IMG/VR virus record: IMGVR_UViG_2548876865_000013
Span: 1 to 5,166 of that record
Direction: 5' to 3' (one strand)
Length of the DNA: 5,166 nt
From: a virus
Lineage: Duplodnaviria; Heunggongvirae; Uroviricota; Caudoviricetes
This document shows, in pieces, positions 3,001 to 5,166 of the stretch. The position numbers were made by a program. Positions within the stretch are counted from its first letter, which is position 1. Each line of letters begins with the position of its first letter.

Positions 3001-5166
3001 ACGGTTACCAGTAATTTCTTCATGTATCCTCCGGATAATAAAAAGCCAGCTTAGTGCACTGAGTGCGGATATATTCCTGCGCCCCTTCCAGCTGCTTCTG
3101 CATTGTCATCAACCGTTCTCTGAGGATGAAATAATCCCGTTCAGCGGTGTCTGCCAGTCGGGGGCCGGTTGCATTATCCACGCGGGCGGTGCCGGTGGAT
3201 TCACGCACGGTACCGGAGCAGGTGGCGTTGATCCGCAGGCGCTTACGACCAGCGGCAACATCAGCGCGCAGAGTTTCATTTTCAGCTCTCGCATCGGCTA
3301 ACTCCTTTGTGTATTTTTCATCCAGCGCAGCAACATCACGCTGGCGCTGCTGCATGTCAGTAATGGTTGCGTTTGCCAGCTCCAGCTCGCTGGCTTTTTT
3401 ATCGCGCTGCGCTTTGTAGGTGATGGCATTATCGCGGTAATGGTCTGTTGCCAGCCACAGCGCACCACAGGCCACCAGCAGGACAATAATCACGCCACAC
3501 AGTGCCCGGTTCATATCGTTGTCACCCCACCAGCCCTGCCGAATTCAACGTCATCCATGCCATAGAAAGAAGAAGAGCAATCAGCGTTGCTGAAAATGAA
3601 ATGCAGACAATGACCCAGAGGATTTCCCCCAGCATTATGAGTTTGCGTGACATGATTACCTCTTAATCCCCGTTTACGATTTCAACGCAATGACCAGTTT
3701 TGCCAGCCCATACAGCATCGGAGACACAGCAATACCAACAGCCACCCACTTAATAGCAAAAGCCAGCGCTCTGCTGATGTCATCAGTCACTGTCACCCCA
3801 GCAGCCCCGACGAAGACAACATCACCCAGGCGAGGGACAGAAAAAGAGCAACCAGCATTAGTGAAAATGAAATACCTACAATCACGCACAGGACCTTTGC
3901 CGGCGTTATGAGTTTGTCTGACATAGCTACCCCTTAATTGCCACAATTAACTGGGATACTACCCATAAAAAAGGGATGCTCCAGACCAGCAAAAATTTCC
4001 AGTTTGGTAATTGACTAATCATGAGTCGCAACTCCCTAATCAGTTTGCTAAAATCAATCAAGGCAGCCTCCCATAGCTTACTGCCATAAAAACAAAACCC
4101 CGCTTGCTGCCAACAAACGGGGTTTTTACTTTTATTCACTTACATTTTGCCAGTTCGCAGGATTTCGTGTTATCCGTCCACGTGAGCATATCTCATTTTT
4201 CAGCAAAATATTCTGCTTACCTGTCGATCCCCCAACACGCCAGCGCACTCTCCTGGTCGCGACGGGATACCTGACCGTAACAGTTGTTTGAGCGAATACG
4301 GCAGTCTCTGCCACCGTCCTTAATCCACCAGCGAATCGCCTCACACGCTCCCCTGCGATCACCTGCATTAATTCGTTTATAAAACGTCGACGGAAAACAC
4401 TTACCGGGGCCAATGTTGTAAGGACAGAATGACGCGATCCCCGCTTTCTGGGGTTCCGTCAGTGGCACTTTGATGTTTTTCTCCACCCATGCCAGCGCCT
4501 TATCACGTTCAATGGCGTTAACCTGGTCGCATTTCTCCTTCGACAACTTCATGCCCGGGACGACAGGTTTACTATCCACCAGAATGGCACCGCGACAGAT
4601 GGTCCAGATACCCGCGCCATCACGGTATGCTGTTGTGTGGTTGCCTTCCTTTTCATCCAGAAACTGGTCAAGGATTTCAGGTGCAGAAGCCCCTGCGGCA
4701 ATCAGCGCCAGAACGGCAGCCGACAGGCCGTATCTGATTTTGGTGTTCATGGATATTTATCAGGATTTATCGGTTTCTGAGCCCTGGATATGTTTATCAG
4801 TTCCAGCCTGTTGCCTCAGGCTGCTAACAGGTCAATACAATCATGAGGATTATTTATGGACAATAACACTATTTCTCTACAGGAGTTGCTCGACAGCATT
4901 TCCAGGCTTCGGGAAGACGTGAACACCCTTACCGTCGCCTTCTCATATCTGGCATTCTCAATTCCAAGGGAACAGATGCAATCAACGCTGGCATCAATCC
5001 AGTTTGAATCATGCAATCCCAAATGGTCTCAGGAACAACAAGACTCTTTCAGGCGGCTTGCTGTATTACTGGATGAAAAATATGCTGGTAAAATTACCAT
5101 TTCGGCGGACTCTTCAGAGAACCCGTAATTATTCCCGGTAGTTTTCCTCTGTAGGTTATCAACACA

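Follow-up and report, generated by a model that had tools for sequence, protein, structure and literature searches.

Genes and features of the locus

The stretch of DNA analysed here (hereafter the window) comprises 5,166 nt, at positions 1-5,166 of IMG/VR record IMGVR_UViG_2548876865_000013 (Caudoviricetes), and carries its late genes on the minus strand. Read from high to low coordinates, this strand contains the SAR endolysin gene R, a hairpin resembling a Rho-independent terminator, several small open reading frames (ORFs) for one-pass membrane proteins, the spanin genes Rz/Rz1, a 74-aa ORF, and the small terminase gene Nu1 (Table 1). The hairpin is the subject of this report, in which we argue that it probably terminates transcription on the late-gene strand and that it goes with the small genes that follow it rather than with the endolysin gene that precedes it. 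Judged from its sequence, the window is a Stx-phage-like E. coli prophage: annotated homologues have an identical gene order, and many E. coli prophages, as well as Stx-converting and related lambdoid phages, contain near-identical DNA. At least part of the segment around the hairpin (3900-4230) is matched in 2,026 of 5,426 complete E. coli genomes, and a single genome may contain as many as 10 copies.

A strong hairpin favouring the late-gene strand

A first-pass annotation of the window had proposed a GC-clamped, bidirectional terminator hairpin at 4094-4133, with T-tracts on both sides, inside what should be a single late operon. The hairpin was readily recovered, its stem (4094-4126) forming both the longest inverted repeat of the window (I1, 16-nt arms, 88% complementary) and the top match of the terminator scan (minus strand, 15 pairs, six of them G-C). 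The repeat reads AAAACCCCG-N15-CGGGGTTTT, with five G-C pairs clamped by four A-T pairs, and on the minus strand two G.U pairs complete a continuous 15-bp stem with a 3-nt GGC loop. The 40 nt first annotated fold on this strand at -20.3 kcal/mol (z -5.4), and a 61-nt segment folds at -24.2 kcal/mol (z -6.3), with none of 200 shuffles as good in either case. The longer fold, in which the A-tract at 4127-4139 can pair with the U-tract, adds a 7-bp A-U extension to the 15 bp and so reaches ~22 bp, interrupted by small internal loops.

The minus-strand tail 3' of the stem is UUUUGUUUUUAU / GTTTTTATGG / GUUUUUAUGG, and the run UUUU(stem)GUUUUUAU passes the scan threshold of at least five T in eight. 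Eleven sites were returned by the scan across the window (5.5 +/- 2.3 expected), but all others have only 5-7 pairs and are mostly noise, the hairpin standing far above them. The plus-strand fold contains A.C mismatches and reaches only -13.7 kcal/mol (z -2.9, one of 200 shuffles as good), and the scan of the plus strand does not call the hairpin. The structure is thus real and far beyond chance. Both T-tracts of the first-pass annotation exist, but the late-strand tract (4084-4097) lies partly outside the interval then given, of which positions 4127-4133 are the A-tract of the late-gene strand.

Related loci were gathered in four ways, through the outer stem of the hairpin, the leader following R, R homologues in other species, and the coding sequence of the downstream small gene. 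In an alignment of 18 diverse homologues, 97% of the cells are paired and five of the 13 pairs have changed on both sides. The covariation score is 0.239, against 0.118 for shuffles (none of 500 reaches the observed score) and at most 0.073 when the pairing is slid. Compensatory swaps run from AAAA/TTTT to AAAG/CTTT, replacing A-U by G-C at the fourth pair, and from CCCCG/CGGGG to CCCCA/TGGGG, replacing G-C by A-U at the base of the inner stem. The T positions 3' of the stem are invariant or nearly so in these homologues, and all family members retain the A-tract although the sequence further upstream differs.

Strand energies were compared over symmetric segments of 64 unique variants, 63 of which are more stable on the late-gene strand (means of -18.2 and -13.6 kcal/mol); the same holds for 27 of the 28 variants adjoining the R family of the window. 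Across 27 in-register variants and 15 stem positions, 50 G.U cells occur on the late-gene strand and a single one on the other. Similarly, the terminator scan calls the hairpin on the late-gene strand alone in four contexts, namely the window and three others (L397, L089, and L225). Taken together, the compensatory changes and the kept T-tract point to a maintained structure of the terminator type, biased to the late-gene strand.

One alternative is a two-way terminator, which would also stop plus-strand antisense transcripts (from the DUF3950/EcOnc12-like region or from promoters within the small-ORF block) and thereby keep antisense RNA out of R and S. The symmetric layout invites this idea, with A- and T-tracts next to both ends of the stem and an A-tract that the family conserves. 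In addition, the plus strand, whose tails are UUUUUACUUUUAUU and UUUUUACUUUU, still folds at -13.7 to -15.3 kcal/mol with the UUUUUACUUUUAUU tail, members of the family whose stems are perfectly Watson-Crick paired are nearly as stable on one strand as on the other, and plus-strand units lie downstream (the DUF3950 gene and an EcOnc12 homologue at 2672-2719). However, the wobble pairs favour the late-gene strand in the proportions given above, the scan never calls the antisense strand, antisense U-tracts are interrupted in many members (e.g. CUUUCGCUUU), and the neighbouring genes are co-directional, not convergent, in the contexts examined. We therefore regard two-way termination as unlikely and the hairpin as best described as essentially one-directional; the "bidirectional" label is weak, but some relatives are nearly symmetric.

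The hairpin travels with the downstream small gene

Many contigs with differing downstream sequences share 88-97% identity over the block that starts at the R stop and runs to where the U-tract ends (q1-132), which initially gave the impression that the hairpin was the endolysin's own terminator. Two sets of loci overturned this interpretation. The first concerns phages in which an antirepressor gene (ant) lies between R and Rz, such as P13374 and Sakai Sp9, Sp10, and Sp12. These ant-type phages retain only the first 86 nt after R, a leader common to peptide-type and ant-type phages, after which the late-gene strand shows another hairpin, not homologous to that of the window. As the leader is kept and the hairpin replaced, the leader goes with R and the hairpin does not. 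The ant-type hairpin consists of GGCACCGUAAUGGUGCC followed by UUUGUCAUUU, folds at -18.8 kcal/mol, and is followed by ~150 nt and then ant (L003, 2220-2492; L005; and L293, L295, and L296, which correspond to Sp9, Sp10, and Sp12).

In the second set, the hairpin recurs without the leader of the window, directly 5' of relatives of the first small ORF (ORF44). The upstream gene in these contexts may encode a diverged SAR lysozyme, a 138-aa enzyme, a GH19-like enzyme, or an M15 peptidase followed by one extra ORF; further upstream neighbours include a Peptidase_M15_4 gene lying directly before the hairpin, a GH108+PG_binding_3 gene, a Big_2 protein gene, and a gene for a baseplate-hub-like protein (tail region). 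Two of the upstream enzymes have no Pfam match. At least three Pfam-distinct endolysins thus precede the hairpin, and tail genes do so too.

Aligning ORF44 itself returned near-identical copies only, and we used instead a degenerate coding pattern, S-K-L-I-R-E-x-R, to scan viral contigs. To avoid ascertainment bias, this pattern was made to cover ORF44/45 coding sequence alone and is blind to the hairpin. It recovered 120 copies in 41 unique upstream contexts, and the hairpin is present in all 41, always in the same layout: A-tract, hairpin, and U-tract, the last ending ~30-35 nt before a GTG or TTG start. The hairpin, together with the 5' untranslated region (5'UTR) CUGACCUUGxAUAAGGCAAGGGAGAA, also heads two other families of small membrane-protein genes, one of 60 aa (MEKYKRILL..., PHROG 1115) and one of 50-57 aa (...KYKRFFLRL...). 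In lysis-cassette contexts, the small ORFs usually run into the spanin genes, with abutting or overlapping stop and start codons. From these comparisons, we take the conserved unit to comprise the hairpin, the short 5'UTR after it, and one small gene for a one-pass membrane protein, which the spanin genes usually follow, and we assign the hairpin to this downstream cassette, not to the endolysin. The suggestion that it insulates endolysin expression is therefore abandoned, as the hairpin is linked to the downstream small-gene module whatever gene precedes it.

A module boundary

The first-pass annotation had also suggested that the hairpin could mark the boundary of an inserted module, and here the data agree. 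Mosaic breakpoints fall at q86 (just before the hairpin), q132 (just after the T-tract), and, further downstream, q149 and q236, and leader variants occur in mixed combinations with downstream cassette types. R and Rz abut in many other genera and overlap in the K-12 prophage Qin (rrrQ/rzpQ), an annotated reference in which we found no insertion between the two genes, the ynf small proteins being encoded elsewhere. In the window they are 702 nt apart, including a 292-nt gap between R and several small hydrophobic ORFs, and GC content drops to 0.415 across the R-Rz gap, compared with 0.53-0.60 in R and Rz. Such a pattern is consistent with exchange at short boundary sequences common to the partners, which has been proposed as a source of phage mosaicism (PMC3029335). 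Candidate terminators brought by insertions after R in other genera (L035, L039, L050, L055, L064, L071, L072, and L078) were rejected, these matches being T-rich coding sequence of membrane segments and thus false positives.

Could the hairpin be no more than a recombination linker or relic, that is, a palindromic patch kept by homologous exchange with little effect on transcription in vivo? Breakpoints do cluster at its edges, leader types are shuffled relative to downstream types, the hairpin heads different small genes (PHROG 6632, PHROG 1115, and the 50-57-aa family), and conserved boundary sequences are precisely what the proposed mosaicism route involves (PMC3029335). However, the compensatory changes and the invariant or nearly invariant U-tract imply selection on a structure with terminator anatomy, beyond sequence identity, and the ant-type phages have an unrelated late-strand hairpin at the equivalent spot. 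A linker of this kind thus seems quite improbable.

The inserted block resembles a moron in lying between genes that are adjacent in relatives. No promoter-like site was found on the minus strand between the hairpin and Rz, either in the window or in L397, L089, and L225, with the proviso that a consensus scan may miss atypical promoters. As for a terminator 3' of the inserted gene, only weak 5-pair scan matches occur between ORF44 and Rz in the window, and in relatives no hairpin of comparable strength intervenes where ORF45 leads directly into Rz.

Probable transcription through the hairpin

A promoter search through the leader, across the A-tract, and from the hairpin to the Shine-Dalgarno sequence likewise revealed no conserved or consensus-matching site in the window and the same three contexts, and only ~20 nt separate the stem from the Shine-Dalgarno sequence. 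With no promoter found and so little room, the downstream genes must be transcribed through the hairpin. Of the two routes envisaged in the first-pass annotation for these genes, Q-type antitermination is therefore favoured, and a promoter of their own is disfavoured by the short gap and by the lack of any promoter-like site between the hairpin and Rz.

The placement of the hairpin inside a single late operon is confirmed by relatives. The complete genome of PhiR12_1 (host in record: E. coli K-12) successively carries Q, an esterase-like gene, S, R, the hairpin, small ORFs, Rz, Nu1, A, W, and B (portal), and the order of the window from R to Nu1 is that of PhiR12_1. This genome reads as a lambda-type, Q-dependent late operon with the morphogenesis genes 3' of the hairpin. 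Since Q precedes the hairpin and the spanin, terminase, and head genes annotated in the part of PhiR12_1 examined follow it, polymerase modified by Q would have to read through. Q-loaded RNA polymerase is indeed termination-deficient, as its RNA exit channel is made narrower and longer by Q, so that terminator hairpins do not form (PMC9388147; bioRxiv 10.1101/651190). Terminators within lambdoid late operons are known, but "their roles are not known"; proposals include stopping spurious, non-antiterminated transcription or lowering the amount of downstream mRNA (PMC8022706). In Tn916, an arrangement combining a terminator-insulator with antitermination is documented (PMC11658703).

We thus consider it somewhat more probable than its alternatives together that the hairpin is a Rho-independent terminator on the late-gene strand, forming the 5' boundary of a mobile small-gene cassette and read through with the help of Q; termination and read-through are both inferred, the latter from gene order and the known properties of Q. 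The mobile cassette would consist of the A-tract, hairpin, U-tract, short 5'UTR, and small one-pass membrane-protein gene, here placed between R and Rz. RNA polymerase lacking the Q modification would stop at the hairpin. In a lysogen, the genes for the membrane-active peptides, spanin, and morphogenesis would hence be out of reach of stray or moron-driven transcription passing through S and R. Once the prophage is induced, polymerase carrying the Q modification would ignore the hairpin, as it does other late-operon terminators, and the whole block would be expressed. In addition, because the hairpin and its tracts are common to otherwise unrelated neighbours, they may serve as a homology patch for the exchange of endolysin modules and small-gene/spanin modules.

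The occurrence of an unrelated late-strand hairpin at the equivalent place in ant-type relatives supports this model, but several points weigh against it. Some natural variants have stem mismatches or a weakened U-tract (e.g. GCGAGG, TTTGG), so that selection is not absolute. Conservation of the A-tract, together with the almost equal stability of the two strands in many family members, makes a role on the other strand possible. A terminator located after S and R cannot shield a lysogen from leakage of holin and endolysin, making its selective benefit questionable. Finally, Q and pR' lie outside the window, the loci sampled are mostly from E. coli/Shigella-type viral contigs, and part of them was found via patterns derived from the hairpin or leader.

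More tentatively, the arrangement may represent a "terminator-first" mobile cassette, the inverse of the promoter-gene-terminator moron, in which a one-pass membrane-protein gene brings its own upstream terminator to any place in a late operon, after whatever type of endolysin gene or among tail genes, stays silent in the lysogen, and is expressed with Q only, the hairpin doubling as a patch for module swapping. We rate this as a possibility with the odds against it. Should the small membrane peptides, spanin, and morphogenesis genes indeed be gated by the hairpin so that they await Q, lysogens would possess a simple safeguard against leaky late expression, and the hairpin would also mark a recombination site of lysis modules.

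Other RNA-based explanations

Processing or stabilization of the late mRNA offers another explanation: the hairpin could be cut by RNase III, or could protect the 3' end of the S-R mRNA or the 5' end of the small-ORF/spanin mRNA, setting different levels for the two halves of the cassette. The 61-nt fold is long enough to be suggestive (~22 bp) and lies exactly between two translational units, and partial termination or differential mRNA level is among the roles proposed for intra-operon terminators (PMC8022706). Still, we obtained no result specific to processing, and the invariant U-tract, explained by termination, is needed neither for RNase III cleavage nor for end protection, leaving this hypothesis very unlikely.

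Two further hypotheses appear more remote still, and about equally so. A type I toxin-antitoxin-like system would make ORF44 the toxin and have an antisense RNA run from the 3' end of the ORF over the ribosome-binding site to the plus-strand hairpin. The size and hydrophobicity of ORF44/45 recall type I toxins, the plus strand has a usable hairpin and U-tail, and plus-strand promoter-like sites occur at the 3' end of the ORF in the window (3918-3947, CTGACA-18-CACAAT with TG) and in L225 (842-871). Such a promoter is, however, absent from L397 and L089 (hence present in two of four contexts), promoter matches occur at chance frequency (three found in the window versus 6.9 +/- 3.0 expected, ~0.9 per 800 nt), ORF44, which has no separate promoter, closely adjoins its neighbours (2 nt to ORF43a), the structure favours the late-gene strand, and no Rfam family matches.

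The other such hypothesis is a small regulatory RNA (sRNA) of ~130 nt derived from the 3'UTR of R, made of leader and hairpin, possibly Hfq-bound, and terminated by the hairpin. A conserved leader ending in a strong hairpin and U-tail is indeed typical of 3'UTR-derived sRNAs, and the diverged relative L089 has promoter-like sites in its leader. Against this, the minus-strand leader of the window has neither a promoter-like site nor an Rfam match (E<=1), the hairpin occurs without this leader in many contexts, and the checked Hfq-CRAC peaks of E. coli O157 Sakai all lie outside the R-ant gap in Sp9, Sp10, and Sp12, which share the leader. More generally, none of the checked peaks of the Sakai table, set against the maps of Sp3, Sp9, Sp10, and Sp12, falls in an R-Rz or R-ant gap, an indirect comparison as Sp9, Sp10, and Sp12 are ant-type. 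Known prophage sRNAs were rejected as matches because they map elsewhere: AgvB, AsxR, and EcOnc01-03 at the moron site after pR', PasA and PasC beside the holin-lysozyme operon by the sialate esterase gene rather than in the R-Rz gap, and PasB among structural genes.

The leader also contains an 8-codon mini-ORF (ATG...TAA, 4170-4196, minus strand) in its most variable part, reading MRYAHVDG here and MTLANADG or MRFAHTDG elsewhere. A function as attenuator peptide was rejected, as the mini-ORF has no Shine-Dalgarno sequence, lacks the ATG in about a quarter of the copies, and offers no alternative pairing with the terminator; it is probably non-coding.

Small genes and neighbouring features

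Table 1. Features of the window, listed along the late-gene (minus) strand, followed by the plus-strand genes.
Feature	Position	Strand	Basis or remark
SAR endolysin R, 177 aa, upstream neighbour of the hairpin	4217..4750	-	Pfam Phage_lysozyme, E 2.3e-24; "lysozyme" or "lysozyme R" in homologous records
86-nt leader from R stop to hairpin, travelling with the R family of the window	4131..4216	-	BLAST block q1-86
A-rich tract GUGAAUAAAAGUA, directly 5' of the stem; second T-tract on the plus strand	4127..4139	-	Sequence; 61-nt fold
Terminator stem-loop, 15-bp stem (5 G-C, 8 A-U, 2 G.U), GGC loop	4094..4126	-	Fold, terminator scan, inverted-repeat search, covariation
U-tract of the late-gene strand, UUUUGUUUUUAUGG; its first four U are the last four of the stem	4084..4097	-	Terminator scan; T positions of the family
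Short 5'UTR of ORF44	4062..4085	-	Read from sequence
70-aa GTG-start ORF through the hairpin, artefactual 5' extension of ORF44	3927..4139	-	PHROG match to residues 28-69 only
ORF44, TTG start, 44 codons, one-pass membrane protein, partner gene of the hairpin	3927..4061	-	PHROG 6632
ORF43a, 43-aa hydrophobic peptide	3793..3924	-	PHROG 4906, E 4.5e-21
C-terminal 40 codons of a 60-aa small membrane-protein family	3674..3796	-	PHROG 1115/4493; GTG start overlaps ORF43a stop
ORF43b, second 43-aa peptide copy	3522..3653	-	PHROG 4906, E 1.6e-12
Rz (i-spanin), downstream end of the inserted block	3020..3514	-	Pfam Phage_lysis, E 6.7e-51
Rz1, embedded in Rz	3109-3294	-	
74-aa ORF, between Rz and Nu1		-	
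Nu1, small terminase	1045-1593	-	
DUF3950 gene	1977-2162	+	
PHROG 2411 gene, 90 aa	4856-5128	+	E 1.1e-58; DUF1823 in some records

As the first-pass annotation suspected, the 70-aa ORF translated through the hairpin is an artefact: its N-terminal part is hairpin and U-tract, PHROG 6632 covers residues 28-69 only, and homologues (44-45 codons, GTG or TTG start, strong Shine-Dalgarno sequence) start 3' of the hairpin. It should be replaced in annotation by the 44-codon TTG-start gene, whose product appears in public records of several genomes, among them EPEC E2348/69, as a hypothetical protein of 44 aa. In the 5'UTR of this gene, a small hairpin is possible between GGCAG (4085-4081) and CUGCC (4066-4062), with the Shine-Dalgarno sequence GGGAGG (4072-4067) in its loop. 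Other cassette types, which start with GTG or TTG, have small inverted repeats at the same place (CCUUG..CAAGG, GACU..AGUC), the Shine-Dalgarno sequence lying within or beside them. A small inverted repeat between terminator and start codon may be a candidate translational control element.

The small ORFs of the R-Rz gap (3522-4061, minus strand) are joined by short or overlapping junctions, ORF43a starting 2 nt after the ORF44 stop, and in relatives the ORF44/45 stop abuts or overlaps the Rz start. The 40-codon ORF is probably a recombination remnant, to be compared with the 60-aa MEKYKRILL... gene of PhiR12_1, and the gap as a whole (ORF44, ORF43a, the fragment of the 60-aa family, and ORF43b) looks like a recombinant of two cassette types. 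It contains several real-looking small membrane-protein genes, all still "hypothetical" in public records. The position of this array presumably matches that of P2 lysA. In other genera (L052, L055, L071, and L072; Enterobacter-like, Morganella), 24-34-aa membrane peptides with a G-M-x-G-W-G-W-F motif directly follow the R stop without a terminator, and small membrane genes seem widespread at the R-Rz junction. The Mu "releasin", a small membrane protein acting on a SAR endolysin (PMC9239132), provides a lead only as to what the ORFs of the window may resemble.

The remaining features lie away from the hairpin. The PHROG 2411 gene, located between the holin region and R and opposite to the late operon, is likely a moron. 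On the plus strand, 2603-2780, and especially 2672-2719, is 94% identical to an intergenic stretch of Sakai Sp9 with Hfq-CRAC peak EcOnc12, whose counterparts are EcOnc10 in Sp12 and EcOnc11 in Sp10 (all uncharacterised); EcOnc10-12 map to the Rz/DUF3950 gap, and the block of the window has the same placement, in antisense to its late genes. This identity makes it likely that an Hfq-bound RNA is encoded there. A terminator-like site (GCCAGCTCCAGCTCGCTGGC followed by TTTTTTAT) lies on the plus strand inside Rz (3375-3394), in antisense orientation; it may be due to chance, or may terminate antisense transcripts arriving from the DUF3950/EcOnc12 region. The sole Rfam match of the whole window at E<=1 is a DicF-like one on the plus strand at 568-597, which is far below the gathering score (20.2 versus 48 bits, E 0.59) and most likely due to chance.

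Comparison with known systems

Bidirectional terminators between convergent genes share with the hairpin a symmetric layout of A-tract, G+C stem, and T-tract, but the genes flanking the hairpin are co-directional, and its reverse strand, the weaker one in 63 of 64 variants, yields no scan call. The terminator-insulator of Tn916 (PMC11658703) is similar in logic: a mobile element blocks outside or untimely transcription, and antitermination passes the terminator in the element's own programme. Tn916 is, however, another type of element with another antitermination mechanism, and its case was shown experimentally, whereas ours is deduced.

The lambda tR'/Q system is similar in that an intrinsic terminator is cancelled by Q-loaded polymerase (PMC9388147; bioRxiv 10.1101/651190), as we suppose here, and relatives of the window carry Q a few kb upstream. 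The two differ in position: tR' directly follows pR' and acts as a regulatory switch, whereas the hairpin lies several kb downstream, after S and R, without a Q-binding or pause element.

Lambdoid morons (Juhala et al. 2000, as cited in PMC4104026 and PMC3029335) are likewise extra DNA between late genes that are adjacent in relatives, with lower GC content, small genes of unknown function, bounding terminators, and different sites in each phage. In contrast to these, the cassette of the window has its terminator at the 5' rather than the 3' end, the search yielded no promoter belonging to it, and its ORFs are packed against each other and against Rz. Given this packing and the lack of a promoter, the small genes are expected to be expressed with the late operon, not autonomously in the lysogen.

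A further parallel is provided by the late-operon terminators predicted in phages L and P22 (PMC8022706), where hairpins of the Rho-independent type followed by a U-tract also lie between co-directional genes served by one Q-controlled promoter, so that all downstream transcription must pass them, and for which the same roles (stopping non-antiterminated polymerase or trimming downstream mRNA) have been proposed. The hairpin described here differs from those of phage L, for which no such linkage is reported, in forming a covarying sequence family tied to one kind of downstream gene. The kind of feature, an intra-operon terminator at a mosaic joint, is thus a known one, the putative "terminator-first" cassette being slightly unusual; this hairpin family and its "terminator-first" linkage appear undescribed in the searchable literature. 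With a covarying family, a fixed partner gene, and a presence in many E. coli prophages, including relatives of Stx phages, it offers a tractable case for intra-operon terminators of the kind predicted in phages L and P22.

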